A stretch of DNA of 64,000 nucleotides from an uncultured Gammaproteobacteria bacterium (GCA_902521725.1 CABYTF010000003.1:81709-145708); one strand, 5' to 3'; shown: positions 15,382 to 47,941, numbered from the stretch's first letter. Notes: generated from the letters alone by a model not told the origin. Numbers and translations are program-made.

Positions 15382-16127
15382 TATTTAAATTTTTTTGTAA
15401 ACTTAGAAATTTGTCTATCAAGTGAAATTTTATCATTAGTTATAAATCCATCTATTTTATTAAAACTAATACCGAGTAAATCATATATGACAGCTACTTG
15501 ACCATCAATGCCGTTCCCAGAGCCAATGCCAATCACAGGTGCACTACAATTTTGACTAATTTTCTTAGCTAGACTGTTTTCTAAACATTCAATTAATATC
15601 ACTTTTGCTCCTAGTTTATCTAGACTTACCGCTAGGTCATATAATTTTTTCGCCTCATCTTTACTTTTACCATATTTACGATACCCAGATTTAGATTTGA
15701 TAGTCTGAGGAAGTAGACCTATGTGTGCACATAAAGGTATATTTTTTTCTATGAGATATTTTGCTATTTCTATATTATTAGTATCTATCTCAATTTTTAT
15801 AAGATCAGCAAGTTTCGTTGAAATAAACTTGTGGGAATTTTTATAAGCTTTTGATTTTGTATTATATGAATTTTTTGGAAGATCGATCATTAGGATAGAG
15901 GTTTTTATTCCAGATTTTACACATCGTGCATGGTATGTTACTTCATTTAAAGTAACGCCATGTGTGGTCTTTTCACCTTTAATAACTTGTCCAAGCGAAT
16001 CTCCAACTAAGATGATATCTATCCCTGAACACTCAAGATATTTACTCATACTGGCATCATATGCAGTTATACATGAGATTTTCTTTCCTCTTTTATAGAG
16101 ATTTAATAATTTACTGAGTTTACTCAT
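15381..16127 (-). CDS. panB: 3-methyl-2-oxobutanoate hydroxymethyltransferase
   Basis: ITAYDASMSK...ILVGDSLGQV PanB signature. Sits in the panB–panC–panD order. Confidence 0.85.
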   Translation of the reverse strand: MSKLSKLLNLYKRGKKISCITAYDASMSKYLECSGIDIILVGDSLGQVIKGEKTTHGVTLNEVTYHARCVKSGIKTSILMIDLPKNSYNTKSKAYKNSHKFISTKLADLIKIEIDTNNIEIAKYLIEKNIPLCAHIGLLPQTIKSKSGYRKYGKSKDEAKKLYDLAVSLDKLGAKVILIECLENSLAKKISQNCSAPVIGIGSGNGIDGQVAVIYDLLGISFNKIDGFITNDKISLDRQISKFTKKFK

Positions 16128-16129
16128 AG

Positions 16130-16759
16130 TTATATCGATGATGGATTAAAGTATTTTTTTCCGTTTATATCTGATGATATTTCTTCTATGAGTATTTGAT
16201 AGTCAGTATCATTATTTATGTTTACGTTTGATGTATTAATTATGAGAACAGGTGAAGCGTTATACTCATGGAAGTGTTTCATGTATATCCCATTTACAGA
16301 ATCGATGTATTTTTTTTTGATATTTTTCTCTATGTCTAGACCTCTTCTCTTTATTCTCTCCAATAAAATGTCTGTTGAAGCTTGAAGATATATTATCAAA
16401 TCAGGTATAGGAGGTTTAAAATCTAGCTTTTTTCTCAATTCCTGATACATTTCATACTCAACTTCAGTTAGATTTAGTTTGGCAAATAACTCATCTTTAC
16501 CAAAGTAAAAATCCGAGATAAGTAAATTTTTTGTATCCTTTACTTCGATTGATTGTTCAATTCTTCTCAATAAGAAATAAACCTGTGTTGAAAAAGAGTT
16601 TAACTGGTTATGATCATAAAAATCTTTCAAAAATGGATTGGAGGCATAATCCTCAAACAAAGTTTGGCATTTAACAGTATCTGATATCTTTTTTGCTAGT
16701 GTTGTTTTACCAACACCTATAGCACCCTCAATAGCAATATATTTCTTTCCTATCATCAT
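16130..16759 (-). CDS. deoxynucleoside kinase family protein
   Basis: IAIEGAIGVGKTTLAKK P-loop plus the DRY-like ERIKRRG dNK/dCK/dGK-family pattern. Confidence 0.6.
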   Translation of the reverse strand: MMIGKKYIAIEGAIGVGKTTLAKKISDTVKCQTLFEDYASNPFLKDFYDHNQLNSFSTQVYFLLRRIEQSIEVKDTKNLLISDFYFGKDELFAKLNLTEVEYEMYQELRKKLDFKPPIPDLIIYLQASTDILLERIKRRGLDIEKNIKKKYIDSVNGIYMKHFHEYNASPVLIINTSNVNINNDTDYQILIEEISSDINGKKYFNPSSI

Positions 16760-35926: not shown

Positions 35927-36949
35927 TTATCCTCCGATGTAAGACATTTCGACCTTAGGTAGATCTCTTTTTGATGAAAATCTTATCTGAGAGTACTGAT
36001 CTGAGCGTTCCATCCAGATTTTTTTGAAGAACTCTAAAAGTTTTTCCTCATAATCACCAGATCTTATTACGCTTTTGATATCAAATCCATTGCTTGCGAA
36101 TAAGCAGGTGAATAGTTTACCATCAACAGAAAGTCTTGCTCTGTTACAGCTTGAGCAAAAGGGTTGGGTAATGGAAGATATTAATCCAATTGAAGAATTA
36201 CTACCTTTAATATGCCATTTTTTTGCGGTTGAGGAAGTCTCCGTTTTCATTTGCTTAAGACTATAATGCTGATTTATACTCTCAAGTAGACTCTCAGATG
36301 AGACAACTTTGCTTGGGTCCCATTTATTTGACTCACCAACATCCATATACTCTATGAATCTGATCTCAGATTTAAAATTTTTCATATGATTGATAATATC
36401 TATTACCTCATCATCATTGACACCCTTTATAACAACAGTATTTGTTTTTATAATATTAAAGTGCTTTTCGATACTCTCTAAAATAGGCATTAAGCTGAAA
36501 TTTTTTTTTGTACCATTAATAACAGAAATTTTATCTTTATCCAATGTATCTAAGCTTAAGGTAATTGAGTCCAGACCTGATTTTTTGAGTTCACTTACTT
36601 TATCATCTGATAACAAAGAGCCATTTGTTGTCATGCTAACATGATCAAGCATGACGTCTGTTTTGAGCTTAAAGATAAGTTTATCAATATTTTTTCTCAA
36701 AAGAGGTTCACCTCCTGTGATACGAACTTTCATCAAACCTATTTTTTTTAGGAGTTTGCAGATATCAATTATCTCCTCATATGACAAAATATTGTCCTGA
36801 GATATATAACTATAGTCTTTATTAAATATATCGGAGGGCATACAATAGCTGCACCTAAAATTACATCGATCAGTTACAGATATTCTTAAATATTCGAAAT
36901 TTCTTGATAGTTTGTCTGTTACAGTGTTAGTCACAAAATTTGCACTCAT
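35927..36949 (-). CDS. moaA: GTP 3',8-cyclase
   Basis: LRISVTDRCNFRCSYCMP radical SAM motif of MoaA. The C-terminal Cys cluster is present. Confidence 0.85.
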   Translation of the reverse strand: MSANFVTNTVTDKLSRNFEYLRISVTDRCNFRCSYCMPSDIFNKDYSYISQDNILSYEEIIDICKLLKKIGLMKVRITGGEPLLRKNIDKLIFKLKTDVMLDHVSMTTNGSLLSDDKVSELKKSGLDSITLSLDTLDKDKISVINGTKKNFSLMPILESIEKHFNIIKTNTVVIKGVNDDEVIDIINHMKNFKSEIRFIEYMDVGESNKWDPSKVVSSESLLESINQHYSLKQMKTETSSTAKKWHIKGSNSSIGLISSITQPFCSSCNRARLSVDGKLFTCLFASNGFDIKSVIRSGDYEEKLLEFFKKIWMERSDQYSQIRFSSKRDLPKVEMSYIGG

Positions 36950-37694
36950 GATCTTTGTTTATGGTTATAGTCTTAAACTCATAATTTTTCATATCGATCA
37001 ACATTAGTTTACTGCCGAAGTTATCACCTATGTCACAAATTAACTTGATGCATTCTGTTGCTAGCATAGTACCTACAAGCCCAGTGACACTTCCAAGTAT
37101 TCCTGAATCGAGACATGATGGAGAAGTGTCTGGCAAATCGTTATATAGGCATCTGTAACATGGCATGTCATCAAGGTCATTTCTAAAAGTAGCAATCTGA
37201 CCCTGCATTTTTATTGCCGCTCCACTTATTAGCGGTATCTTATTCGCTATTGAGATATTATTAATTTCACTCCTGGTTTGAAAGTTATCTGTACAGTCTA
37301 TAATGTAGTCATAATCTTTGAGCAGATCTTTATCAAATTTATTATCAATTTTTCTTGGAATTGACTTAATATCTATCTCTGAATTCAATGATTGAAGATT
37401 TTTTTTTGCTGCCTCAGCTTTTTTTTCAGATATATCATCTTCAGAGAATAAGACTTGACGATTTAAATTAGATAAAGACACATGATCAAAATCAATTAAA
37501 CACAAATGGCCTACTCCTGATGATGCTAGATATGTAGCTGCGGGGCATCCAATTCCTCCCAAACCAATTACTGCTACTTTTGATTTAAGAAGAGATAATT
37601 GACCGTCTATGTCTATCTCTGGTAAAACAATATTTCTGTTATATCTCAGAAGATCTTTGTCTTGAAGTTCAGCCTTTGTTTTTTTGGCTTGCAT
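36927..37694 (-). CDS. moeB: molybdopterin-synthase adenylyltransferase (ThiF/MoeB family)
   Basis: RYNRNIVLPEIDIDGQ...VIGLGGIGCPAA nucleotide-binding motif. C-terminal CxxC (HECKFCD). The likely start is MQAKK rather than the longer tracked ORF. Confidence 0.7.
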   Translation of the reverse strand: MQAKKTKAELQDKDLLRYNRNIVLPEIDIDGQLSLLKSKVAVIGLGGIGCPAATYLASSGVGHLCLIDFDHVSLSNLNRQVLFSEDDISEKKAEAAKKNLQSLNSEIDIKSIPRKIDNKFDKDLLKDYDYIIDCTDNFQTRSEINNISIANKIPLISGAAIKMQGQIATFRNDLDDMPCYRCLYNDLPDTSPSCLDSGILGSVTGLVGTMLATECIKLICDIGDNFGSKLMLIDMKNYEFKTITINKDHECKFCD

Positions 37695-37962
37695 TGAATT
37701 TTTCCAGCTGTTCTTTAGTAGCTTCTTTTTGATGTTTATTTTTGTACTCATCATATGGCATACCATAAACTAACTCTCTAGCTTGATCGTATGATATTTC
37801 CTCTCCATGAGTTGTTGATTCTGAGACATACCATTTAGAGATACAGTTTCTACAAAAATTAGCTAAGTTCATCAGATCAATATTCTGCACTTCGGGGTTA
37901 TCTTGTAAGTGCCTTACTATCCGTCTAAATGTAGCTGCTTCAATTTCTGTTTTTTTATCCAT
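37669..37962 (-). CDS. DUF1244-like small protein
   Basis: FRRIVRHL...NIDLMNLANFCRNCISKWY pattern, as I recall for DUF1244. 97 aa. Confidence 0.45.
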   Translation of the reverse strand: MDKKTEIEAATFRRIVRHLQDNPEVQNIDLMNLANFCRNCISKWYVSESTTHGEEISYDQARELVYGMPYDEYKNKHQKEATKEQLEKFNASQKNKG

Positions 37963-38001
37963 GGTTTAATGATACTACAGATCAATCTCTGGTGAAATAA
38001 A

Positions 38002-38883
38002 TTAAGGAATAGAATTAGCTAGCTTAATACCAAATAGAATTACTAGAAGGCCAAGAATATAATTCCAGCTGAATTGATCATTAAGAATAATGATACCAAA
38101 CAGGATAGCCCATAGTGGTATTAAAAAATTCATCATTGAAATAAATGATGCTCCCTCACTCTGCAATATTTGAAAATAAATTACTGTCGCGATAGCTGTA
38201 CACAAAACCCCAAGAAGTAAAATATTCATATCTAGTAGAAGGTTAGAATAACTTGGTTTCGATTGGTCTATGAATATTAAATAGATTGTCATGAAGAAAG
38301 TCGCAAATAAAATCGTACCTGTTGATGCACTAAGCGGATCAGTAATTTTATATTTCTTGCCATAGATTGCTGCAAATGCATAAAGTGTTGCTCCCAATAT
38401 TACTAATAATTGGGATTCAAATGTTTCGCTTATAGAGTTATCAATAAATAAATCATCCCGATATATAAGAATAAATACGCCTAGGAAAGATATTATAAAG
38501 CCTATAAATTTCTGTTTGTTCATTTTTTCATCGTCTAAAAACAGATGAGAAAGTAAGATAGTGGAGATTGGCATTGTAGCCATCAATATGCCGGCCATCG
38601 CACTATCAATATTCTTCTGACCAGTGATAATTGCAATAAATGGAATAACAATACCCACCAAGCTCATGAATAAGTAATAATTTACTTGAGCAAGATTTAT
38701 TGAAAATCTTTTATATAAAAAATATATCAATGCGACTAAAAACACCGATCCTGAAATAAGCCTTCCTGCAACGATCACCTCTGGCGTGAATGAGTCTAGA
38801 GCCATCTTATTAAGGGTGAATGCCCCGCCCCATATAGCAGATAGTAAAATTAGTAGGAACCAGTTAGATTTGACTAAATTCAT
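38002..38883 (-). CDS. EamA/DMT-family transporter
   Basis: About 10 TM helices with two EamA-like halves. Confidence 0.65.
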   Translation of the reverse strand: MNLVKSNWFLLILLSAIWGGAFTLNKMALDSFTPEVIVAGRLISGSVFLVALIYFLYKRFSINLAQVNYYLFMSLVGIVIPFIAIITGQKNIDSAMAGILMATMPISTILLSHLFLDDEKMNKQKFIGFIISFLGVFILIYRDDLFIDNSISETFESQLLVILGATLYAFAAIYGKKYKITDPLSASTGTILFATFFMTIYLIFIDQSKPSYSNLLLDMNILLLGVLCTAIATVIYFQILQSEGASFISMMNFLIPLWAILFGIIILNDQFSWNYILGLLVILFGIKLANSIP

Positions 38884-38903
38884 GTTAATATCATTGAAAG
38901 CAT

Positions 38904-39563
38904 ATGAAAATTTTATCTATAAATACTTCTGAACCGCAAAAGGTTATTTTTAATGGTAAAGAGCTTATCACAAGTATCTATAAAAAGCCTGTTTCAAAAA
39001 AGGTGCAAGTGACACCCCAAGGCATAGAAGGTGACAGGCAAGCTGATTTAAGTGTTCATGGTGGTTTTGATAAAGCAGTATATGGGTATTCTTACACTCA
39101 TTACAAACTATGGGGTGAACGTTTAGAAAAAGATTTCAAAGAATTTGGACTGGTTGGAGAAAACCTAACAATTGATGAGTTTGATGAAAACACTATAAAC
39201 ATCGGCGACAGATTCCAGATAAATGATTGTATTCTTCAAGTCAGTCAACCAAGGATTCCTTGTTATAAAATTGGGATTAAAATGAATAGCAGAGATTTTC
39301 CTAAAATGTTTTCTCAATCAGGTCTACTTGGAAGCTATTTCAGAGTTATCCAACAGGGTAGCATTGAAACCGGTGATCAAATAGAGAAGGTCCATTCAGA
39401 AGAAAATTCAATGAGCCTAAAAGAAATAGCCTCTGTCCTATTTGTAGATATAAAGAACATAGACCTAATGAAAAAAGCGCTCGATATTAAACCTTTAACT
39501 GAAGAGATCAAAGAAAAATTCAGAGAAAGGCTCATGAAACTTGGTGATTTTTCTTCGCTCTAA
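38904..39563 (+). CDS. yiiM: MOSC domain protein, YiiM-like (Moco-dependent)
   Basis: GDRQADLSVHGG...IGDRFQINDCILQVSQPRIPCYK aligns well to E. coli YiiM. Confidence 0.7.
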   Translation: MKILSINTSEPQKVIFNGKELITSIYKKPVSKKVQVTPQGIEGDRQADLSVHGGFDKAVYGYSYTHYKLWGERLEKDFKEFGLVGENLTIDEFDENTINIGDRFQINDCILQVSQPRIPCYKIGIKMNSRDFPKMFSQSGLLGSYFRVIQQGSIETGDQIEKVHSEENSMSLKEIASVLFVDIKNIDLMKKALDIKPLTEEIKEKFRERLMKLGDFSSL

Positions 39564-39566
39564 AAT

Positions 39567-39788
39567 ATGATTAAACGTCAAAATCTTAAGGTTGTTGAAA
39601 ATACAGTAAATAAAGTCTCATGCGCAGGTGATGAAAAGTCTGGCAAACATCCATTAGTTTATTTAACTATAAAAGATGGAAGTGCAGAATGTTATTACTG
39701 TGGTAAAATGTTCGTTACTAAAGATACACATGAGAAATACCTCAATAAAGTGAGAAAAAAATTTAAGAAAGCCACTAAAAATGTTTAA
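39567..39788 (+). CDS. zf-CHCC type zinc-finger small protein
   Basis: VSCAGDEKSGKHPLVYL...AECYYCGKMF pattern (C..H..C..C). Confidence 0.4.
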   Translation: MIKRQNLKVVENTVNKVSCAGDEKSGKHPLVYLTIKDGSAECYYCGKMFVTKDTHEKYLNKVRKKFKKATKNV

Positions 39789-40236
39789 AGAGAGAAAGAC
39801 AATAAAACAAGTTGAAGAGGGAAATGAGCTTGCTCCTAAATTTGACCAAAATGGTTTTATACCTGTCGTAACGACTGATGCTAAGTCAGGAATAGTTTTA
39901 ATGCATGCCTATATGAATGATGAGGCATTAAAGAAAACTATCGCGACTAAGGAAGCTCATTACTATAGTAGAAGCAGAAAATGTTTATGGCACAAAGGCG
40001 CGACTAGTGGATTAATACAAGATGTGAAAAATATATATATCGATGATGATCAAGACTGTGTTTGGTTGAATGTAATCGTTCGTGGCGAAGCCAGTTGTCA
40101 TGTGGGTTACAAATCATGTTTTTATAGAGAGATTGATATTGACTCAAAACAACTTGAACTCAAGTTTATTGAAGATGAAAAAATATTTGATCCTGATGAG
40201 GTTTATGGTGATGCACCAAACCCTACCATCCTATAG
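39781..40236 (+). CDS. hisI: phosphoribosyl-AMP cyclohydrolase (stand-alone)
   Basis: HAYMNDEALKKTIATKEAHYYSRSRKCLWHKGATSG...CHVGYKSCFY is the canonical PRA-CH. Confidence 0.8.
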   Translation: MFKERKTIKQVEEGNELAPKFDQNGFIPVVTTDAKSGIVLMHAYMNDEALKKTIATKEAHYYSRSRKCLWHKGATSGLIQDVKNIYIDDDQDCVWLNVIVRGEASCHVGYKSCFYREIDIDSKQLELKFIEDEKIFDPDEVYGDAPNPTIL

Positions 40237-40458
40237 ATTCAAGTTTTTAACAAAAAAATTGGCAAATAAACCCAGCAAGTAAAGTGTTACTATTAAATAG
40301 ACAATTCCTAGTGACATTGACGAGAAAAAATATAATATTGACGGAATTGGACTGTATTGCGAAAAATATCCATGGGTAAAATGTATAAATATTAACAATG
40401 GTATGGATATTAGAGAACCATGTAATACGTTTTTAATAATGCTTTTAATAAAATCCAT
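40231..40458 (-). CDS. small membrane protein, unknown function
   Basis: 75 aa, two hydrophobic segments. Weak support. Confidence 0.25.
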   Translation of the reverse strand: MDFIKSIIKNVLHGSLISIPLLIFIHFTHGYFSQYSPIPSILYFFSSMSLGIVYLIVTLYLLGLFANFFVKNLNL

Positions 40459-40469
40459 AGCTTTACCTA

Positions 40470-41231
40470 ATGTCTAAAATCAGTATATCAAAAAAAACTG
40501 CTTGGTCACTTATTTTAAAAATTAATACTAAAATTTCATGCAATAATAATTTAGTTAATATTAATGAAGATATAAGTGGTCATAAAATTAATATTATCTT
40601 CAACAAGAGCAATAATCATATAGAAAATTCCAATCTAAGAGATGATCATGAAGTAAATGACTTACTTAAAATTTTCCTCCCTATCGTTTGCTCCTCAAAA
40701 AAAACACAATTTATTGCACACATCGCACAGTCATTGGACGGTTTCATTGCGACTAATTCAGGAGAATCAAAATATATAAGTAGTAAAGAAAACTTAGACC
40801 ATATACATCGTTTACGTGCTATCTCAGATATCATAATTGTAGGCGCCAATACTTTTCGTGAAGATAAACCAAAACTGACAACACGGTTGGTTGAGGGCAA
40901 TAATCCTAAAATATATGTGTTTGATCCAAAAAAAATTCTTAAATCAAATCAAACATCAAACATAAAAGTAATAAGTGATAAAGATATAATGAGAAATAAA
41001 TTTAAGAAATACAAGACAATATATATTGAAGGTGGTGGAAGAACAATTTCATATTTTATGGAAAAAAATATACTTGATCGTATTCATGTCTGTCTATGTC
41101 CTATCATGCTCGGTGGAGGAAGGCCTTCTTTTATTGAAAACAAAAACATAAGTATAAACAATTTAAAATCTTATGATCCAAAGCATTATCAAATGGGAAA
41201 TGATGTTCTGTTCGATCTTAAGGTTAGATAG
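40470..41231 (+). CDS. RibD C-terminal-domain (dihydrofolate reductase-like) reductase with low-complexity N-terminal extension
   Basis: FIAHIAQSLDGFIATNSGESKYISSKENLDHIHRLRAISDIIIVGANTFRED is the RibD_C/DHFR-like fold signature. Confidence 0.5.
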   Translation: MSKISISKKTAWSLILKINTKISCNNNLVNINEDISGHKINIIFNKSNNHIENSNLRDDHEVNDLLKIFLPIVCSSKKTQFIAHIAQSLDGFIATNSGESKYISSKENLDHIHRLRAISDIIIVGANTFREDKPKLTTRLVEGNNPKIYVFDPKKILKSNQTSNIKVISDKDIMRNKFKKYKTIYIEGGGRTISYFMEKNILDRIHVCLCPIMLGGGRPSFIENKNISINNLKSYDPKHYQMGNDVLFDLKVR

Positions 41232-42096
41232 TATTTCTTTTTAAGAAGAAATAAGCGCCTGGCAAAGAGCACAACAAATTACATAGACCATAAACTATAG
41301 CTACGGTGACACTGGCTGATACTGATAAACCAAGGAGAAATGATATGACTAGCGCAGTCGTTTCTCTTATTCCCCAGCCTCCTATACTTACTGGGAGTGC
41401 CATAGAAAATAAGATAATTGGTGCAAAAACGAAGAAACTTATTAAATCAATGTTCAAATTTAATGAGTACGCACAGATTATATATGTTGTTATGTAAGTC
41501 AAAACAATAATTAAAGATAATAAAAAATGCTTGTAAAGGCGTTTACCGCTAAATATATATTTGAAGTTTATAAAATACTGATTTTTCTTTTGATAAAAAA
41601 ATAAGAGCTTTGTCAGAATAACAAATATAATGATTACAGCTAGTACATAAGTGGAGGCCATATATTTTTCATTTACTATAAAAAATATCTGAAGTGAAAA
41701 TATGAATGTTACTACAAGAGCAAGTTGTCCAGATAATCTTTCAAAAATTACCGACTGCAAAGATTTTATGAAATTGCTACTGTTTTTATTATTAACTTTG
41801 ATATTTAGTGTTCTATATAGATCTCCTAGGATTCCTGTTGGTAAGATGTTATTCATAAATCCTGCAATATAATAATACCTTATTGCGTCACTATAATTTA
41901 TCGAAGACTGTGTTTTGGATGCAATAAAACACCATCTCCATGCGGATAGTAAATATTGAAATATACTCACTGCTAATACCAGCGGCAAAAAGATCAGATC
42001 AACACTTCCTAAAATGTATACTATTTCACTTCCATATGTCTGTAATATATAAAACATAAGAGTTAGTGAAAGTATGTATTTAATATATTTCTTCAC
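41224..42096 (-). CDS. UPF0104 'flippase-like'/lysylphosphatidylglycerol-synthase-TM-region family membrane protein
   Basis: LPVSIGGWGIRE and GILGDLYR motifs typical of the family. About 8 TM helices. Confidence 0.55.
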   Translation of the reverse strand: MKKYIKYILSLTLMFYILQTYGSEIVYILGSVDLIFLPLVLAVSIFQYLLSAWRWCFIASKTQSSINYSDAIRYYYIAGFMNNILPTGILGDLYRTLNIKVNNKNSSNFIKSLQSVIFERLSGQLALVVTFIFSLQIFFIVNEKYMASTYVLAVIIIFVILTKLLFFYQKKNQYFINFKYIFSGKRLYKHFLLSLIIVLTYITTYIICAYSLNLNIDLISFFVFAPIILFSMALPVSIGGWGIRETTALVISFLLGLSVSASVTVAIVYGLCNLLCSLPGAYFFLKRNTI

Positions 42097-42965
42097 TTTT
42101 TATACAGCAATAAATCTTTATGTCCGACTTGAACCTTAATTGATTTGTTTGTAATACTGTCAATTTTGTCATTATGCCAGCGCCTTAGCATAGACCTATC
42201 TATACCATCCATGTGGAAAAGAGATTTTTTAATATCTGATACATATCTTTTCAAGAATGTAATATCATCCAAAGATTCATTCTGAATGATCCAAGGGGAA
42301 TCAGCAATTTTGATCTCATACCCTAATTCTCTTGCTTTTTTGGAAACATAATCAATGGATTTGTATCCTAAAGCCTTGCCGAATCCTTTGTCATATGACT
42401 GGTGTTTATTGAAATAGGACATAATATATTTATCATATGGATGACTCAGCTTCCACTTGACTTTACCGTCAAAGCATAATGATAAAAATAATATATTGTA
42501 ATGATTTATTTTGTTCAGACAAATATCAATAGATGATTTGGACATTAGGTCTATGGCCGCAGAATAACTTATGATATGTGGTTGTGTGTCTTTTATTTCA
42601 TACGTATCACAATTTTCTTTAACTATAGACACATCAAATTTTTTCTGAGATTTATCACTTATAGTAAGATCTAGATTATTTGTGTTTGATTTAATTACAT
42701 AAATATTTTTAAAATTTTGTCTAAGATTGCTTTTTATAGATTTAAGTAAATTGATGTCATTATCGACAAGTATAGCTCTATTAGGAAATAGTCCCTGTTT
42801 AAGTGCCCATATTAAAAAACTCCCGGAGCCTGTACACATATCGATCATGTGATAGTTTTGTTTTAGATTATTTTTCTCAATGAATTCATTTAGAATTCCA
42901 CTTCTTGCTATGGTGTCATAGTGAATTCTCATGTTTATCCAAGATTTACTAAACTTACTATCCAT
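42093..42965 (-). CDS. class I SAM-dependent methyltransferase
   Basis: Motif I IDMCTGSGSF. Confidence 0.5.
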   Translation of the reverse strand: MDSKFSKSWINMRIHYDTIARSGILNEFIEKNNLKQNYHMIDMCTGSGSFLIWALKQGLFPNRAILVDNDINLLKSIKSNLRQNFKNIYVIKSNTNNLDLTISDKSQKKFDVSIVKENCDTYEIKDTQPHIISYSAAIDLMSKSSIDICLNKINHYNILFLSLCFDGKVKWKLSHPYDKYIMSYFNKHQSYDKGFGKALGYKSIDYVSKKARELGYEIKIADSPWIIQNESLDDITFLKRYVSDIKKSLFHMDGIDRSMLRRWHNDKIDSITNKSIKVQVGHKDLLLYKK

Positions 42966-43944
42966 CTAACACCCGCTTGAATTTCGAGCCTACATCATCC
43001 CAGCTCATAAGAGAGGAATTTTTGATTGGGGATATATCATGTGACAAATCATTAACTGCTTTTGCAATCTCCAGGTAGTTATTTTTATTAACATATTTTC
43101 TTTTAAAGCCTTTTAAATTTTCATGAAATACAGGCAAGTCCGAGACTACGAGAGGTAGTCCAAGTGCTCCAGCTTCGACGTTTGCTATACCATATCCCTC
43201 ATAATGACTCATACACATATAAATCCTAGAATTAATCAAAGTCTGAAATAGATCCGAATGTTTATTGATTACTCCAAGAAACTTAACTCTATTTGTAAGA
43301 CCTAGCTGCGTAATAATTTCGTTTATAGTTAAGAAGTAATTATCATCATTTTCATATTTTCCAACGATTAATAATTTCCATTTATCATCCAGATGAATTA
43401 GTGCTTGTATACATGATTCTATATTTTTTCTTGGGATGATGGATCCAACACAGATAAGATTATAATTTTTTGGCTCGTGCTGGTTATTTCTTAAATATAT
43501 GTCATCGATACCAGGTTGTATTACATCGATTGTTTTTCTGTTATTTAACATTTTCTGAATTACTTTCCTCATAGTTTTACTTACAGTAATCAGGCCATGT
43601 GCTTTCGAAAAAATCATTCGTTCTTTTAGTTTTAAAGAAATAACTCCAAATTTATTATTTTCATATGAGACCGGATGATGGATCAATAGAATTACACGGT
43701 ATTTTCTTACAATTGTGTTCATTAAACAATACATCTTCGATGCTAAAAGGCCATCAATAATTAGTGTAGATCTTTTGGGCAAACCGTTTATGGTGTTAAA
43801 GAAATTGAAAGTAAGTGCTGATGAATTTGTTGGATAAATATTGGTAATTTTAAATCCTATTTTCTTAAGATAATTTAAAATTTTTTTATCGTATTTATTT
43901 CCGCCAGTGATGCTTGAAAGATCTGGAGTGATAAAATAATTCAC
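42958..43944 (-). CDS. family 4 (GT-B) glycosyltransferase
   Basis: EGYGIANVEAGALGLPLVVSDLPVFHE GT1/GT4 C-terminal motif. Confidence 0.65.
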   Translation of the reverse strand: MNYFITPDLSSITGGNKYDKKILNYLKKIGFKITNIYPTNSSALTFNFFNTINGLPKRSTLIIDGLLASKMYCLMNTIVRKYRVILLIHHPVSYENNKFGVISLKLKERMIFSKAHGLITVSKTMRKVIQKMLNNRKTIDVIQPGIDDIYLRNNQHEPKNYNLICVGSIIPRKNIESCIQALIHLDDKWKLLIVGKYENDDNYFLTINEIITQLGLTNRVKFLGVINKHSDLFQTLINSRIYMCMSHYEGYGIANVEAGALGLPLVVSDLPVFHENLKGFKRKYVNKNNYLEIAKAVNDLSHDISPIKNSSLMSWDDVGSKFKRVLDG

Positions 43945-43945
43945 T

Positions 43946-44338
43946 TTATATTGTTTTTGTATATGAAGCTGAGGCTAAATGATTTTCTTTAAGTGATATT
44001 TTGATTGCAGAAAGTTTATTTACTTGGAAATTTCGTGTTTGTAGTTCATCATAGATCTCATCAGTAAATCGTTTAGCCATAAACTCTGTTGTGGTAATCT
44101 CGTCTTTAAGCTCATCTAAATTATCTAGATTTTTATAATTATATTTCTCTATTACAGTTTTCAGAATATCTGTTGCTAGGCCAATATCAATTATAATATT
44201 ATTGTTTATAAGTTTGTCGGAGAGTAACATCATATCAATAATATATGTTGTTCCATGAAGGTGTTTAGCTGGTCCAAAGAAATCATCTTTCAAACTATGA
44301 GCAATAAAACAGTAGTCCCTTATTTTTAATTCATACAT
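43946..44338 (-). CDS. 6-pyruvoyl-tetrahydropterin synthase-family (PTPS-like) protein, non-canonical active site
   Basis: FIAHSL...HLHGTTYII...DIG...YNYKNLD...TTEFMA follows the PTPS fold pattern. It lacks the CxxxHGH of QueD. Confidence 0.5.
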   Translation of the reverse strand: MYELKIRDYCFIAHSLKDDFFGPAKHLHGTTYIIDMMLLSDKLINNNIIIDIGLATDILKTVIEKYNYKNLDNLDELKDEITTTEFMAKRFTDEIYDELQTRNFQVNKLSAIKISLKENHLASASYTKTI

Positions 44339-45306
44339 TAGTACCTCACTACCTTACATAAACCTTTAAGGTATTCCTTTTTGAAAAACATAGGTAAGTC
44401 TTTTAACTTGATCTCATTTTTATCAATCAATATATCGAGAACATCATCATCCAACATTTTTAATGCGAGATTCCTTCTTTTTAGGTTATCAAATTTTCTA
44501 AGTTTATAAGATGGCATATTACCTACTTGCGAGAATATTATATTTAAACGTCTTGAAAAACAATTCTCTCCCATTCTAATTTTGGACTGTTGCTTCCCGT
44601 ACCAGCTTAACACACAAATTTTTGTATCAAGATCGGTGAAACGCTGAAGTTGGTCAAGCGCAGCAATATTTCCTGAGCATTCGTATATTATGTCGGGATT
44701 TTTGATGTTTTTGATATTATTGTCAAAATTTATATTCAATCTATTACATAACATTCTTTTTTTGTTGTCTTTATCAATCATGATAACTTCAATACCAAAA
44801 GTTTTTGATAGAACATAAGCCATTAATAGACCAACAATCCCAGCGCCGATTATGTAGACCTTATCACCAATAGATGGCATGCTATCCCACATAGCATTTA
44901 TAGCTGTCTCCATATTTGCCGTAAGTAGTGCTCTCTTAAGGGGAATTGTTTCTGGGATAACACTGACCAAAGAGGAATTGATAATATATTTTGTTTGATG
45001 CGGATACATCGTGTAAACCATTTTATTTATGAAATCCTTTGGACCATCAATTACCTTTCCGACATTCAAATAACCATATTTTACACGTGTATTGAATGAA
45101 CCTTCCTGATGTGGTGCTTTCATGTACTGGAACTGATTAGATGGAACCTGTGAGTTAAAAACAATTTTCTCTGTCCCGTAGCTAATTCCAGTATAAAAAG
45201 TTTTTACAAGTAATTCATCATGATCTAAATTCTTTTTTAAATATTCCGTTTCAATTGTTCCTTTTTTCTTCGAAACCCAAAATGATTGTGCGTTATACTG
45301 ATCCAT
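44338..45306 (-). CDS. MDR-superfamily (zinc-ADH-like) dehydrogenase without obvious Zn-Cys ligands
   Basis: Rossmann IIGAGIVGLLMAYV in the mid-protein region. 322 aa. Confidence 0.45.
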   Translation of the reverse strand: MDQYNAQSFWVSKKKGTIETEYLKKNLDHDELLVKTFYTGISYGTEKIVFNSQVPSNQFQYMKAPHQEGSFNTRVKYGYLNVGKVIDGPKDFINKMVYTMYPHQTKYIINSSLVSVIPETIPLKRALLTANMETAINAMWDSMPSIGDKVYIIGAGIVGLLMAYVLSKTFGIEVIMIDKDNKKRMLCNRLNINFDNNIKNIKNPDIIYECSGNIAALDQLQRFTDLDTKICVLSWYGKQQSKIRMGENCFSRRLNIIFSQVGNMPSYKLRKFDNLKRRNLALKMLDDDVLDILIDKNEIKLKDLPMFFKKEYLKGLCKVVRY

Positions 45307-45308
45307 GA

Positions 45309-46019
45309 ATGAATTATATCAAAAATATGTTATCTAGATATGCAGGTTTTCAGTTATTTTTTCTCAACGTATCATACTTAATGTTACTGGTTCTACTCTT
45401 GACGCCAGGAGAAATAACACAAAGCATACTGACCTCCTCTTTGTATGTGCTAATGTTTATTTCTGCAATCTCAATTTACACTCTAAGGGAAAGTCGGATA
45501 GATTTTAATATTCCAAATTTGATCACAAACTTTAGACTAGTTTTAAACATTTTCATTTTCGTCTGTATCTATAATACTGAAAGTTATAATATCGAAACAA
45601 TTCTACTTCTCGTTATAATAAGCTTGATATTAGATGGAGCCGATGGCTACTTATCTAGATACCTAAATCAAATGACCTTATTTGGGAAGACATTTGATCA
45701 AGAGGTTGATAATTTCTTAATATTTATTCTCTCATTCTCATTGATATACAACTATGATTTCAACATAGCATTAGTTTGTATCCCTCTATATAGATATATT
45801 TTTCTGATTTTGATTAATCAGGAATTCATTAGTAATCATGAGCTTCCTGAATCCTTATTCAGAAAAACAGTCTGCGTTATAACAATATTGTCTCTAGCTG
45901 CATGTAACTATTACAATATGGTTGAATCAATGAGAAGTTTAATATATATAATTATAGTATTAGTTTCATATTCATTTTTGAAAGACACTATTTACTTATA
46001 TAGGAGAAAGAATGCTTAA
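45309..46019 (+). CDS. CDP-alcohol phosphatidyltransferase family protein
   Basis: LDGADGYLSRYLNQMTLFGKTFDQEVD fits D-G-x2-A/S-R-x8-G-x3-D-x3-D. Polytopic. Confidence 0.65.
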   Translation: MNYIKNMLSRYAGFQLFFLNVSYLMLLVLLLTPGEITQSILTSSLYVLMFISAISIYTLRESRIDFNIPNLITNFRLVLNIFIFVCIYNTESYNIETILLLVIISLILDGADGYLSRYLNQMTLFGKTFDQEVDNFLIFILSFSLIYNYDFNIALVCIPLYRYIFLILINQEFISNHELPESLFRKTVCVITILSLAACNYYNMVESMRSLIYIIIVLVSYSFLKDTIYLYRRKNA

Positions 46020-46587
46020 AAAATTTATAATACTTTTATTGTTCCCTGTAATAACTTTTGCGTCTACAGACAAATACATAATCGATAAGTCTCACTTTGC
46101 AATTGGTTTCTTAGTTGAACATGTCGGCTATGCAAAAACATTGGGAATGTTCCGTGAAATTGATGGAAATTACTCTCACGATACTGAAAATAACACAATT
46201 AACGACATTAACATTATTATTAAAACAGATAGTGTCTTCACAAACCATGATAAGAGAGATGAACATTTAATGAGTCCCGATTTTCTTAATGTCAGTAAGT
46301 ACCCAGAAATGACCTTCAGAGCAAGTAACATAAAAATTGACAATGAGGAAACTATCATAGATGGTCAACTGACACTCCTGGGCATCACGAAGCCATTAAC
46401 ACTCTATGGAAGGATAAATAAAATAGCGAAATATCCATTTGGCGGAATAATTAAACCTTATGTAATGGGCATATCAGCAAAAGGTGTTATCAAGAGATCT
46501 GATCATGGGATGATGTACGCCGTTAAAGACAATCTAGTTGGTGACGAAATAGAACTTATTATTGAATTCGAAGCCATAAGACAATAA
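46012..46587 (+). CDS. yceI: YceI-family periplasmic protein
   Basis: Signal peptide plus YceI-like core. yceA/trhO follows two genes later, as in E. coli. Confidence 0.65.
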   Translation: MLKKFIILLLFPVITFASTDKYIIDKSHFAIGFLVEHVGYAKTLGMFREIDGNYSHDTENNTINDINIIIKTDSVFTNHDKRDEHLMSPDFLNVSKYPEMTFRASNIKIDNEETIIDGQLTLLGITKPLTLYGRINKIAKYPFGGIIKPYVMGISAKGVIKRSDHGMMYAVKDNLVGDEIELIIEFEAIRQ

Positions 46588-47249
46588 TGTCAGCCGATTC
46601 TCCAATAATAAAAAAAGAGCTGCGTGAATATGTTGATATCCTTGGTTATAGTGAATCTGAATTATTAAAAAAAAATAGAGAAGAGACAAAGAAGCTGGGT
46701 CCAATATCCATAATGCAAGTCGGCGCTGCACAAGGCGCTTTTTTGTCAATATTGTGCAAATGCGGTAAATTTAAGAATTGCCTTGAAGTGGGTGTATTTA
46801 CGGGTTACAGCTCATTGTGTATAAGTTCAGCAATAGAGAATGATTCAAGGCTAACAGTTATTGATAATAATAATGAATATTTAGATATTGCAAAAAAGTA
46901 TTGGAAATTAGCAAACGTTGTAGAAAAAATAAATGTGATCAAGAAAGATGCTTTAGAGGCCTTGTCAGAATTAAAAAGTAATTCTGATAAACAATTTGAT
47001 TTTGCTTTCATAGATGCAGATAAAGCAAACTATGTTGAATATTATGATTTGATATTGCCATTAATGAGTCGAGGAGGGATATTGTGTATAGACAATACAC
47101 TTTGGAAAGGAAGAGTATATGATCTTGACAATCAAACTGATAGTACAAAAGCAATCAGATCACTTAACCAAAAAATAAAAAACGATAAAAGGGTTGAACA
47201 CTCTATTCTTACAATTTATGATGGCATGACAATTTGTTACATTAAATAA
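46587..47249 (+). CDS. class I SAM-dependent O-methyltransferase (caffeoyl-CoA OMT-like)
   Basis: LEVGVFTGYSSL...FDFAFIDADKANY...GGILCIDNTLW motifs. Confidence 0.7.
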   Translation: MSADSPIIKKELREYVDILGYSESELLKKNREETKKLGPISIMQVGAAQGAFLSILCKCGKFKNCLEVGVFTGYSSLCISSAIENDSRLTVIDNNNEYLDIAKKYWKLANVVEKINVIKKDALEALSELKSNSDKQFDFAFIDADKANYVEYYDLILPLMSRGGILCIDNTLWKGRVYDLDNQTDSTKAIRSLNQKIKNDKRVEHSILTIYDGMTICYIK

Positions 47250-47941
47250 TGTTCGTATACAATTTCTATAAATTCATAAATATTCCTGATTTATCTATAA
47301 AAAAAGATATTTTGTTAAAAAGGCTAAATCATTTAAATATAAAAGGGACGATTCTCTTGGCAGCTGAGGGTATCAATGTAAACATAAGTCAAAAAAAACA
47401 ACTTCTTGATAAGGCATTAAAGGTTATTAATGAGCAAATATCTTTGGAAGATATACATATAAATAAAACAAAGAGTGATGATATCGCTTTTCAAAAACTC
47501 AAAGTGAAAGTGAAGAATGAAATTATTAGATTTAATTCTCTATTAAAGTATAGTGATAAAAAATATTTAAAATGCATCACTCCTCAACATTGGGATGAAA
47601 TAATTAAAAATGATGCTCAAATCATCGATATGAGAAATAATTTCGAATACAACTTAGGGACATTCAAAGGTGCCATAAATCTTTGTCTGATAAACTTTAC
47701 AGACCTTAAGGATAAGACTAATGAGCTAGACAAGTTAGATAGAAAAAAGAAAACTGCAATCTTTTGTACTGGTGGGATTAGATGTGAAAAGGCTGGAAAA
47801 TACCTCAGTGATATTGGTTTTGAGGATATATATCAACTTCAAGGCGGAATAATTAACTATTTAAATAGCACAAAGAATAAATATTGGAAAGGTGAATGCT
47901 TTGTATTTGATGACAGAATACTACTAAAAGGTAACTCGTAA
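47249..47941 (+). CDS. trhO: rhodanese-domain tRNA U34 hydroxylase (UPF0176/YceA)
   Basis: FCTGGIRCEKA rhodanese active-site loop. Located next to yceI. Confidence 0.7.
   Translation: MFVYNFYKFINIPDLSIKKDILLKRLNHLNIKGTILLAAEGINVNISQKKQLLDKALKVINEQISLEDIHINKTKSDDIAFQKLKVKVKNEIIRFNSLLKYSDKKYLKCITPQHWDEIIKNDAQIIDMRNNFEYNLGTFKGAINLCLINFTDLKDKTNELDKLDRKKKTAIFCTGGIRCEKAGKYLSDIGFEDIYQLQGGIINYLNSTKNKYWKGECFVFDDRILLKGNS

Follow-up and report, generated by a model that had tools for sequence, protein, structure and literature searches.

How the genes at positions 40,470 to 46,019 of a 64,000-nucleotide stretch of DNA from an uncultured Gammaproteobacteria bacterium (GCA_902521725.1 CABYTF010000003.1:81709-145708; the whole stretch is referred to below as the window) belong together, and what they might make, is the question addressed here. 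The initial annotation had described this block (40470-46019) as an unassigned biosynthetic cluster. Its gene set and coordinates were confirmed in the present analysis and all of its domain calls were upheld, by Pfam or, for the methyltransferase and the dehydrogenase, by the folds of AlphaFold models. The block is a streamlined marine-gammaproteobacterial version of a widespread cluster, the hallmark of which is a protein of the PTPS-IV subfamily (PTPS, 6-pyruvoyltetrahydropterin synthase) encoded beside a medium-chain dehydrogenase/reductase (MDR) without zinc ligands. There is a strong case that it is a member of the conserved PTPS-IV/SCO6650-type cluster, in which synthesis would start from a diaminopyrimidine derived from GTP.

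Gene content and conservation of the cluster

The genes of the block, and the gene that follows it, were assigned as follows.

40470-41231, plus strand: RibD_C-type pyrimidine reductase paralogue (Pfam RibD_C, 103 bits)
41224-42096, minus strand: UPF0104 / MprF-type flippase-like membrane protein, 290 amino acids (Pfam LPG_synthase_TM, 112 bits)
42093-42965, minus strand: class I S-adenosylmethionine (SAM)-dependent methyltransferase (sub-threshold Pfam match; AlphaFold model with pLDDT 92.7)
42958-43944, minus strand: family 4 (GT4, GT-B fold) glycosyltransferase (Pfam Glycos_transf_1, 83.9 bits; cut-off 26.4)
43946-44338, minus strand: PTPS-IV-type T-fold protein of the SCO6650 family (Pfam PTPS, 61.3 bits; cut-off 22.4)
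44338-45306, minus strand: zinc-less MDR dehydrogenase (sub-threshold Pfam match; AlphaFold model with pLDDT 88.4)
45309-46019, plus strand: CDP-alcohol phosphotransferase (Pfam CDP-OH_P_transf, 71 bits)
46012-46587, plus strand: YceI-like periplasmic lipid/polyisoprenoid-binding protein (Pfam YceI, 126 bits)

The region is low-GC DNA (approximately 30% G+C), and neighbouring genes of the cluster overlap by 1 to 8 bases or are separated by gaps of 1 to 2 bases; the YceI gene overlaps the transferase gene by 8 bases. The five minus-strand genes, overlapping or abutting, are arranged as expected for one operon. The dehydrogenase (minus strand) and the CDP-alcohol transferase (plus strand) start divergently and only 2 bases apart (CAT-GA-ATG, window 45304-45311), so both promoters and both ribosome-binding sites must sit within the coding sequence of the opposite gene. 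A consensus scan for promoters and terminators gave nothing above shuffled expectation in the AT-rich window DNA, and operon boundaries therefore could not be set by that route. No riboswitch or other RNA family was found by Rfam at gathering thresholds in the window or in four diverse loci.

The dehydrogenase is the marker gene of the cluster and was used to establish how widely it occurs. A pattern scan, run on a single genome for each species, detected relatives of the dehydrogenase in at least 582 species, and a profile search of 1.84 billion representative proteins returned 734 clusters at E ≤ 1e-30. Close marine relatives showed the same synteny at dehydrogenase identities as low as 44%, with 2 to 35 bases between the divergent dehydrogenase and transferase genes. 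Little can be concluded from this synteny by itself, as it extends to all the genes around the block. The same core was also present on a soil metagenome contig whose dehydrogenase was 39% identical. The 79 best non-marine loci were taken as a survey set and searched with the window proteins; some of these loci lie on truncated contigs, and the counts below are lower bounds. They came from Halomonadaceae, Marinobacter, Streptomyces, Actinoplanes and other Actinomycetota, Vicinamibacterales, Gemmatimonadota, Beijerinckiaceae, Variovorax, Hydrogenophaga, and others. Gene calling by GC3 was unreliable in the high-GC loci, where antisense shadow open reading frames (ORFs) appeared, and homology to the window proteins, Pfam, and pre-called genes were used instead.

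PTPS-like protein: 79 of 79 loci, adjoining the dehydrogenase in all
GT4 glycosyltransferase: 76 of 79, directly downstream of the PTPS-like gene
CDP-alcohol transferase: 69 of 79
GTP cyclohydrolase II: 56 of 79
RibD_C protein: 55 of 79
UPF0104 protein: 53 of 79, in the same position
Methyltransferase: 51 of 79
Creatininase-family hydrolase: 42 of 79
Alkaline phosphatase (AP)-superfamily ('Sulfatase') membrane protein: 27 of 79
FkbM methyltransferase: 17 of 79
Family 2 glycosyltransferase (GT2) protein, often fused to a CMAS-type methyltransferase: about 15 of 79
YceI: 9 of 79
Cytochrome b561: 6 of 79
Inositol-monophosphatase (IMPase)-family protein: 4 of 79

The usual order was the window's own, with the transferase divergent from the dehydrogenase, followed by the PTPS-like, GT4, methyltransferase, and UPF0104 genes, and with the RibD_C gene convergent. 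Because the same gene order recurs in at least six phyla, the block is far beyond chance. The initial annotation had allowed that the neighbours might not be co-conserved in other genomes; strong co-conservation was found in Halomonadaceae, Marinobacter, Streptomyces and other Actinomycetota, Acidobacteriota, Gemmatimonadota, and Alpha- and Betaproteobacteria, together with several gene fusions. One metagenome contig carried the GT4, methyltransferase, YceI, GTP cyclohydrolase II, RibD_C, dehydrogenase, PTPS, UPF0104, and transferase genes. The cluster of Roseibaca sp. V10 consisted of the CDP-alcohol transferase, AP-superfamily protein, UPF0104, IMPase, FkbM, dehydrogenase, PTPS, methyltransferase, and RibD_C genes.

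The survey also served to set the limits of the cluster. HisI (39781-40236), a ring-opening cyclohydrolase encoded beside the RibD_C gene, was rejected as a member: it passes the HisI equivalog cut-off and was present in none of the 79 non-marine loci. An O-methyltransferase (46587-47249, plus strand) and a UPF0176 rhodanese (47249-47941, plus strand) were likewise found in none of the 79 and rejected. The limits of the cluster are thus 40470 and either 46019 or 46587, depending on whether YceI is counted.

The encoded enzymes and their predicted order

None of the seven cluster proteins reached an NCBIfam equivalog cut-off, the families checked including PgsA, PssA, cardiolipin synthase, phosphatidylinositol phosphate (PIP) synthase, QueD, RibD, the archaeal reductase, MprF, HpnL, and BchC. 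The protein that gives the cluster its identity is the PTPS-like one, in which the T-fold PTPS domain (COG0720, PF01242) was confirmed. The absence of the CxxxHGH motif noted earlier is correct. The window sequence reads FGPAKHLHGT, with no Cys and with Thr for the last His, so that neither the CxxxHGH nor the CxxxxxHGH motif of PTPS-I/II is present, and the score against the QueD NCBIfam model was 35 bits (cut-off 89). In other words, the protein is without the catalytic Cys and the third zinc-binding His of PTPS and QueD. It matched PDB entry 3D7J ('Uncharacterized protein SCO6650') over its full length (residues 1-129, E 8.5e-26), and the other PTPS and QueD entries in the PDB all gave E > 0.09. 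Alignment of 86 family members yielded the signature VRD..AHS....FGPAQ..HGAT..VD...DIG.A...NLD...T.TE..A...L.ESH.A.A., which the window protein keeps save for three conservative changes; one of these, K for the Q found in 92% of the 86 members, turns FGPAQ into FGPAK at residues 21-25. T-fold enzymes recognise a 2-amino-4-oxopyrimidine moiety through a conserved Glu, and this residue is present in the window protein as Glu118. SCO6650 is reported (Spoonamore et al., 2006 and 2008) neither to bind zinc nor to show PTPS activity, and its pocket is reportedly compatible with a pterin. FGPAQ is the published signature of subfamily PTPS-IV, and the supplement to the same study places PF00925 and PF01872 in PTPS-IV neighbourhoods (PMC5445326). 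By sequence, the window protein is assigned to the PTPS-IV/SCO6650 subfamily. In Additional file 2 of that study PF00925 is labelled 'GTP cyclohydrolase I; includes FolE2', and PF00925 is GTP cyclohydrolase II; the statement that FolE2 lies beside PTPS-IV is probably a labelling slip (PMC5445326).

The dehydrogenase contains a GAGxxG Rossmann motif, in which G154-A-G-x-x-G159 is invariant across the family, as is Asp178 (alignment A1). Its earlier description as an MDR protein without zinc ligands was also correct: residues 1-186 include no Cys, Ser42 stands in the GxCGxD position, the His66 and Glu68 positions vary among family members, and neither the catalytic zinc ligands nor the Cys cluster of the structural zinc is present. 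The AlphaFold model built from alignment A1 has a two-domain MDR fold resembling polyol dehydrogenases, and Foldseek gave TM-scores of 0.75-0.80 to L-idonate 5-dehydrogenase, RspB, and a putative zinc-binding dehydrogenase (4ejm). Further structural matches were glucose, sorbitol, xylitol, and arabinitol dehydrogenases and TarJ, a ribulose-5-phosphate/ribitol-5-phosphate enzyme. The score against the BchC model (TIGR01202) was 56.5 bits, with a cut-off of 291. Foldseek comparison of this model and that of the methyltransferase confirms folds, not substrates.

The likely entry point of the pathway was indicated by the genes that accompany these two. The window RibD_C paralogue has an N-terminal extension of approximately 80 amino acids and no deaminase domain, and no deaminase domain was found in any of the scanned RibD_C proteins of the clusters. 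It scored below the NCBIfam cut-offs (TIGR00326, 79 against 156; TIGR01508, 68 against 186), so it has the RibD_C fold (103 bits) and not the identity of RibD or ArfC. Its nearest solved relatives are the reductase domains of RibD and the archaeal and fungal diaminopyrimidine reductases (2azn, 6p8c, 4ha7). In Chromohalobacter the RibD_C gene is followed by genes for GTP cyclohydrolase II and a creatininase-family hydrolase. These two genes were not found in the 64-kb window nor in the cluster of its marine relatives. No deaminase, lumazine synthase, or FO synthase gene was conserved in the clusters. Such comparisons of sequence and gene content support a pathway that would start from the product of GTP cyclohydrolase II and pass through a RibD_C-type reduction.

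The cyclohydrolases themselves were informative. Where E. coli RibA has Tyr105, Met was present in all 15 of the cluster enzymes from Streptomyces, His in 4 from other actinomycetes, Leu in 1, and the canonical Tyr in 36, and all 20 of the Met, His, or Leu enzymes had a creatininase-family neighbour. The Met variant SCO6655 was reportedly found by Spoonamore et al., in 2006 and 2008, to release the formylated ring-opened product FAPy and not the diaminopyrimidine. ArfB, which deformylates FAPy in archaea, belongs to the creatininase family. The relationship of the cluster homologue to ArfB is distant, so a deformylase role can be argued at the family level only.

Two further features of the cyclohydrolases were observed. 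In 20 loci (one of them L012, at 15403-16557) the cluster enzyme had a conserved N-terminal extension of approximately 165 amino acids that resembled the NCBIfam model PRK08815 (337 bits, below the cut-off of 464); the carriers were Halomonadaceae, some other Proteobacteria, Acidobacteriota, and Gemmatimonadota. The soil contig L009 encoded a cyclohydrolase II of 699 amino acids, with a 500-residue N-terminal region matching nothing.

The earlier calls of a GT-B glycosyltransferase and a SAM methyltransferase hold as well, the former by Pfam (Glycos_transf_1) and the latter by its AlphaFold fold. The glycosyltransferase matched no specific NCBIfam equivalog, the best being VpsD (69 against 300). 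An anti-phage 'conflict system' reading was set aside, as the match to PF20706 (GT4-conflict) was weaker than the general GT4 match under which it lies, and nothing else defence-like was seen (no PADLOC scan was made). The methyltransferase model (alignment A2) has the class I SAM fold and matched more than 360 PDB methyltransferase chains at E ≤ 0.001, and its Foldseek neighbours are small-molecule methyltransferases. Its invariant features in alignment A2 are DxxxGxG, VDND, HQxxDKGFGxALG, and VGHxD, with D42, G46, G48, D68, and D70, and it belongs to an undescribed subfamily. Since the methyltransferase is kept in Roseibaca, which has no GT4, it need not be a sugar methylase.

The remaining proteins of the cluster are membrane or envelope proteins. 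The CDP-alcohol transferase had been credited with a full DGx2ARx8Gx3Dx3D motif; the catalytic motif D-x2-D-G-x2-A-R-x8-G-x3-D-x3-D is indeed complete (DGADGYLSRYLNQMTLFGKTFDQEVD, from residue 109), except that it reads DGADGYLSR-x8-G-x3-D-x3-D, with Ser where the consensus has Ala, a conservative change. The full motif was found in 75 of 79 homologues from related loci, 70 of those 75 having Ala. The initial annotation had considered that this enzyme might be the PgsA or PssA of core phospholipid synthesis, and this was not the case (pgsA TIGR00560, 42.6 against 109.1; pssA TIGR00473, 27.9 against 107). It was also below the NCBIfam cut-offs of cardiolipin synthase and PIP synthase (the latter 16.9 against 170), and its best family-level resemblance was to pgsA. 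PDB sequence matches of the transferase included AF2299 and IPCT-DIPPS, and PDB sequence searches with the transferase and the methyltransferase returned nothing resolving specificity. No cytidylyltransferase was conserved in the clusters, an indirect hint that CDP-diacylglycerol may be the donor. The UPF0104 call also stands: the protein has the LPG_synthase_TM domain only, without an aminoacyl-phosphatidylglycerol synthase domain, and it scored 17 bits against MprF (NF033480, cut-off 600) and 18.2 against HpnL (TIGR03476, cut-off 195.65).

Other proteins accompany this module in part of the loci. The AP-superfamily protein, of approximately 540 amino acids, is mostly encoded directly after the transferase and has a weak 'Sulfatase' domain of the LtaS/EptA/OpgB type, with Pfam scores of 20.5-36 bits against a cut-off of 25, several falling below it. 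YceI is encoded directly downstream of the transferase in 8 of its 9 non-marine loci, which are unrelated to one another (Wenzhouxiangellaceae, Halomonas, Salinicola, Marinobacter, Variovorax, Hydrogenophaga, and others), and it also lies within the cluster in L091; the window YceI (46012-46587) is a probable accessory component of the cluster. Together with the cytochrome b561 of some loci, YceI gives a weaker hint of a product that faces the periplasm and may be redox-active.

Gene fusions provided an indication of the order of the steps. A creatininase-RibD_C fusion occurred in a single case, a Gemmatimonadota metagenome-assembled genome (MAG; L017). A RibD_C-dehydrogenase fusion of 648 amino acids (P0352) was present on two contigs, with GTP cyclohydrolase II encoded directly before it. 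Fusions of GT4 and methyltransferase were found in 7 Halomonadaceae and Marinobacter loci, and Pfam detected fusions of the CDP-alcohol transferase with the AP-superfamily ('Sulfatase') domain in one gammaproteobacterial and one actinobacterial MAG (L040 and L056). In five more loci phmmer placed the transferase and the AP domain in one ORF, and none of the three of these that were scanned with Pfam showed both domains. The fusions and the invariant adjacency of dehydrogenase and PTPS genes link the enzymes in a chain: cyclohydrolase II, (creatininase), RibD_C, dehydrogenase, PTPS-IV. The fusions also define two further modules, GT4 with methyltransferase and transferase with AP-domain protein. 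The predicted order of the enzymes is supported by these comparisons.

Proposed pathway and alternative explanations

The initial annotation had suggested that an unusual polar head group is made, glycosylated or methylated, and flipped on a lipid or CDP-activated carrier, and this reading is supported. The pathway proposed for the cluster has six steps. In the first, GTP cyclohydrolase II would form 2,5-diamino-6-ribosylamino-4(3H)-pyrimidinone 5'-phosphate, and in most other lineages this enzyme is encoded in the cluster, often with the creatininase-family hydrolase. The marine lineage appears to have shed its own cyclohydrolase and hydrolase and presumably draws on the product of the housekeeping RibA, in which case the RibD_C paralogue would be the branch point from riboflavin synthesis. 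In the second step this paralogue would reduce the ribosylamino compound to its ribitylamino form without deamination. Since the scanned RibD_C proteins have no deaminase domain, the 2-amino-4-oxopyrimidine ring, of the pterin/guanine type, would be retained.

Steps 3 to 6 are ones that we infer from the families of the enzymes. In the third, the dehydrogenase would oxidise a hydroxyl of the ribityl phosphate chain, its substrate being 2,5-diamino-6-(5-phosphoribitylamino)pyrimidin-4-one, which is a 1-amino-1-deoxy-ribitol 5-phosphate. Oxidation at C2' could give a ketone that condenses with the 5-amino group to form a 7,8-dihydropterin with a dihydroxy-phosphopropyl side chain, similar to dihydroneopterin 3'-phosphate. 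PTPS-IV would process the product of the dehydrogenase, either catalysing this ring closure or following it. Ring closure to a dihydroneopterin-phosphate-like pterin would be the most economical chemistry, would fit the sequence of the fusions and the pocket reported for SCO6650, and would require no GTP cyclohydrolase I. In the fourth step the methyltransferase and GT4 would decorate the head group. In the fifth, the transferase would join it by a phosphodiester to a membrane lipid, with CDP-diacylglycerol the likely donor, by analogy with the action of PgsA on glycerol 3-phosphate; the proposed side chain is formally a C1-substituted glycerol 3-phosphate. In the sixth, UPF0104 would flip the product, which would be a lipid, to the outer leaflet, where YceI may bind it; a further transfer of the head group, by an LtaS/EptA-like enzyme, may follow in other lineages. 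The recurrent partners of the transferase (IMPase or AP domain, MprF-type flippase domain, LtaS/OpgB-like protein) appear by analogy to mirror the enzymes that handle phosphatidylglycerol.

The confidence that can be placed in these parts differs. The full statement, including the GTP-derived head group, its attachment to a lipid, and its flipping, is about evenly balanced between right and wrong. The specific pterin ring closure, with a methylated and glycosylated 'phosphatidyl-neopterin' lipid in the outer leaflet as an analogue of phosphatidylglycerol, is a tentative suggestion, more likely wrong than right.

Several observations weigh against the proposal. For the window and the related marine loci, which have no cluster cyclohydrolase II or creatininase, origin from GTP is an extrapolation from other lineages. 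Of the canonical Tyr cyclohydrolases, 17 also have a creatininase neighbour, which a simple deformylase model does not need, and the cluster creatininase homologue scored 25.7 bits against ArfB, with a cut-off of 180. The chemistry after the reductase is inferred throughout, and soluble phosphodiesters are also possible products of CDP-alcohol phosphotransferases, for example of DIPP synthase. The attachment chemistry is variable too: no transferase was found in 10 of the 79 loci, 6 of these being full-length, and Roseibaca has no GT4. All six of the full-length transferase-less loci (L042, L046, L066, L075, L083, L085) encode a GT2-family membrane protein of approximately 650 amino acids, often fused to a CMAS-type methyltransferase, and several have a cytochrome b561, which suggests another way of attachment or export of the product. 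Finally, a review citing unpublished work states that PTPS-IV acts in archaeal F420 synthesis (PMC5041015).

Four other explanations were weighed against this evidence. The product may be soluble, such as a modified pterin or pyrimidine glycoside serving as a cofactor or compatible solute, with the transferase forming a soluble phosphodiester and UPF0104 exporting it. Pterin glycosides made by a PTPS, a reductase, and a glycosyltransferase are known in cyanobacteria, the early enzymes of the cluster are all soluble, the PDB matches of the transferase (AF2299 and IPCT-DIPPS) use soluble CDP-alcohols, and many of the carriers are halophiles (Halomonadaceae, Marinobacter). However, no conserved cytidylyltransferase is available to supply a soluble CDP-alcohol, the cluster is also present in non-halophilic soil Actinomycetota and Acidobacteriota, and its partners are lipid-handling or envelope proteins (the MprF-type flippase domain, YceI, and the LtaS/EptA-like transferase, which is fused to the CDP-alcohol transferase in several genomes). 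A soluble product is therefore considered rather unlikely.

Alternatively, the lipid may be a carrier only, from which an LtaS/EptA/OpgB-like enzyme moves the phospho-head group onto an envelope polymer such as periplasmic glucans, lipopolysaccharide, or lipoglycans. LtaS and OpgB use phosphatidylglycerol head groups for transfer in this way. The AP-superfamily protein that would do so is encoded in 27 of the 79 loci, mostly right after the transferase and fused to it in L040 and L056, and the Roseibaca cluster abuts MdoG and a GT2 protein. Its gene is missing from the window, from the marine relatives, and from about two thirds of the loci, and the weakly scoring AP domain might just as well have phosphatase activity and cleave off a terminal phosphate, as phosphatidylglycerolphosphate (PGP) phosphatase does. 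For the marine lineage this explanation would need the lipid itself to be the end product, or an unlinked transferase to be used. Taken as a whole, it is judged unlikely.

It could also be supposed that two operons adjoin, the soluble half (RibD_C, dehydrogenase, PTPS-IV, methyltransferase) making a precursor of a riboflavin/deazaflavin-type cofactor and the membrane genes forming an unrelated lipid operon. The transferase or the flippase is missing in a few loci, and both the statement on archaeal F420 synthesis (unpublished work cited in PMC5041015) and the published networks, which tie PTPS-IV only to GTP cyclohydrolase II and RibD_C, could be taken in this sense. What makes such a division improbable is that the two halves travel together: GT4 keeps its position in 76 of the 79 loci and the transferase is present in 69 of them, across six phyla, and in the marine lineage the transferase diverges from the dehydrogenase across a gap of 2-35 bases. 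Nor do the clusters hold a conserved deaminase, lumazine synthase, or FO synthase, and Halomonadaceae and the marine lineage are not known to use F420. That the genes belong to separate housekeeping pathways (core phospholipid, queuosine/folate, riboflavin) and are neighbours by chance in a very compact genome, where unrelated genes do overlap (as in the O-methyltransferase/UPF0176 unit, in 0 of the 79 loci), is scarcely credible and is contradicted by co-conservation, given the order kept across phyla, four kinds of fusion, a PTPS-like protein without QueD/PTPS catalytic residues, and scores below the NCBIfam cut-offs of PgsA, PssA, QueD, RibD, MprF, and BchC.

If the proposed lipid pathway is right, a large and phylogenetically broad set of bacteria (Halomonadaceae, Streptomyces, Acidobacteriota, Gemmatimonadota, and abundant low-GC marine Gammaproteobacteria) diverts a riboflavin intermediate into an undescribed membrane or envelope compound. 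This would give a function to PTPS-IV, so far represented by a deposited structure of an uncharacterised protein (3D7J) and one citation of unpublished work, and would explain why Streptomyces keeps a variant GTP cyclohydrolase II. Bacterial lipid biochemistry would gain a new class of head group, which might serve redox chemistry in the periplasm, responses to light or UV, or the decoration of the envelope. That all seven genes, with their overlapping frames, have been kept in so streamlined a genome speaks for the importance of the product in the ocean. Cultivable carriers are named by the comparative map (Chromohalobacter, Halomonas, Marinobacter, Roseibaca, Variovorax, and S. coelicolor), and with the order of the enzymes predicted the question is testable.

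Flanking genes and comparison with known systems

A number of features were observed in the DNA on either side of the cluster. In the 233-base gap between HisI and RibD_C there is an unannotated hydrophobic ORF of 75 amino acids (40231-40458, minus strand), probably with two transmembrane helices, which starts divergently 11 bases from the RibD_C start. Its identity in the marine relatives (88, 83, 54, 51, and 47%) tracks that of the dehydrogenase, and no counterpart was seen in Chromohalobacter, Wenzhouxiangellaceae, Roseibaca, or L091. The ORF may serve the cluster as a small membrane partner specific to this lineage. On the other side, the O-methyltransferase (46587-47249, Methyltransf_3, 214 bits) follows YceI with no gap and overlaps the UPF0176/rhodanese gene (47249-47941) by 1 base, both on the plus strand. 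The two presumably form a TrmR-type/TrhO pair, which hydroxylates and methylates wobble uridine in tRNA (ho5U to mo5U).

Just upstream of the cluster, at 35927-39788, lie genes related to the molybdenum cofactor, which were seen in synteny with the cluster in the marine lineage only. Molybdopterin is also derived from GTP. The genes of this stretch are listed below.

35927-36949, minus strand: MoaA-like radical SAM protein
36927-37766, minus strand: ThiF/MoeB-like protein
Within 35927-39788: DUF1244 protein and EamA transporter
38904-39563, plus strand: MOSC-domain protein
39567-39788, plus strand: zf-CHCC ORF, 73 amino acids

A full-text literature search for the cluster's gene combinations, the SCO locus tags, and PTPS-IV retrieved no functional study of the cluster and no product, and nothing on the dehydrogenase, GT4, transferase, or flippase-like gene. 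The 3D7J structure has been deposited and the link of PTPS-IV to GTP cyclohydrolase II and RibD_C is already in print, and the membrane module was found nowhere in this search. The earlier remark that this pairing could be matched to no described phospholipid or glycolipid route is borne out, in that no characterised pathway that combines a riboflavin-type entry, a zinc-less T-fold/MDR pair, and a phospholipid-style module is known to us or was retrieved.

The most similar system is the SCO6650-SCO6655 region of Streptomyces coelicolor. Streptomyces loci share with the window the core of transferase, dehydrogenase, PTPS-IV, GT4, and UPF0104, and have in addition a creatininase gene and a GTP cyclohydrolase II in which Met stands for Tyr105. 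In the marine cluster, by contrast, YceI is an addition and neither a cyclohydrolase II nor a creatininase is encoded; the methyltransferase, for which most Streptomyces loci give a weak match or none, is retained. This likeness is membership in the same orphan family and not an explanation of it.

The first steps resemble the archaeal and fungal start of riboflavin and F420 synthesis (ArfA/ArfB/ArfC; Rib7), in which the ring of GTP is opened, a creatininase-family formamide hydrolase acts, and a stand-alone RibD_C-type reductase works before deamination; MjaRED (2azn) and the 2,5-diamino-6-ribosylamino-pyrimidinone 5'-phosphate reductases are among the solved structures nearest to the window reductase. 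However, the cluster proteins are far below the NCBIfam cut-offs of ArfB and ArfC, and no deaminase, lumazine synthase, riboflavin synthase, or FO synthase comes next. In their place are an MDR dehydrogenase, PTPS-IV, a methyltransferase, GT4, and membrane enzymes.

The membrane half can be compared with the handling of phosphatidylglycerol by PgsA, PGP phosphatase, the MprF flippase domain, and LtaS/OpgB. The cluster has a PgsA-like transferase, in some loci a phosphatase candidate (IMPase or AP domain), an MprF-type flippase domain, and an LtaS/OpgB-like protein. It differs in that the family cut-offs are not reached, there is no aminoacyl-phosphatidylglycerol synthase domain, and the proposed acceptor would be the polyol phosphate of a GTP-derived heterocycle and not glycerol 3-phosphate.

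Two other systems share part of the logic. The pteridine glycosides of cyanobacteria and green sulfur bacteria are made from a GTP precursor by a PTPS, sepiapterin reductase, and a pteridine glycosyltransferase, a set matched here by a T-fold PTPS protein, a reductase, and a GT-B enzyme. In the cluster, entry would be through GTP cyclohydrolase II and RibD_C instead of GTP cyclohydrolase I, the T-fold protein has no zinc site or Cys, the dehydrogenase is an MDR and not a short-chain enzyme, and genes for attachment and flipping are added. In the pathway to phosphatidylinositol and its mannosides, a polyol phosphate is the substrate of a CDP-alcohol transferase (PIP synthase), and the product is dephosphorylated and then glycosylated by a GT4 enzyme (PimA), as could be the case here, whereas the cluster transferase is below the PIP synthase cut-off, there is no inositol-phosphate synthase, and the head-group genes are of the riboflavin/pterin type. 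All of the enzyme families in the cluster are familiar from such systems; it is their combination that sets the cluster apart, and the chance that its product is of a wholly new kind is appreciable.

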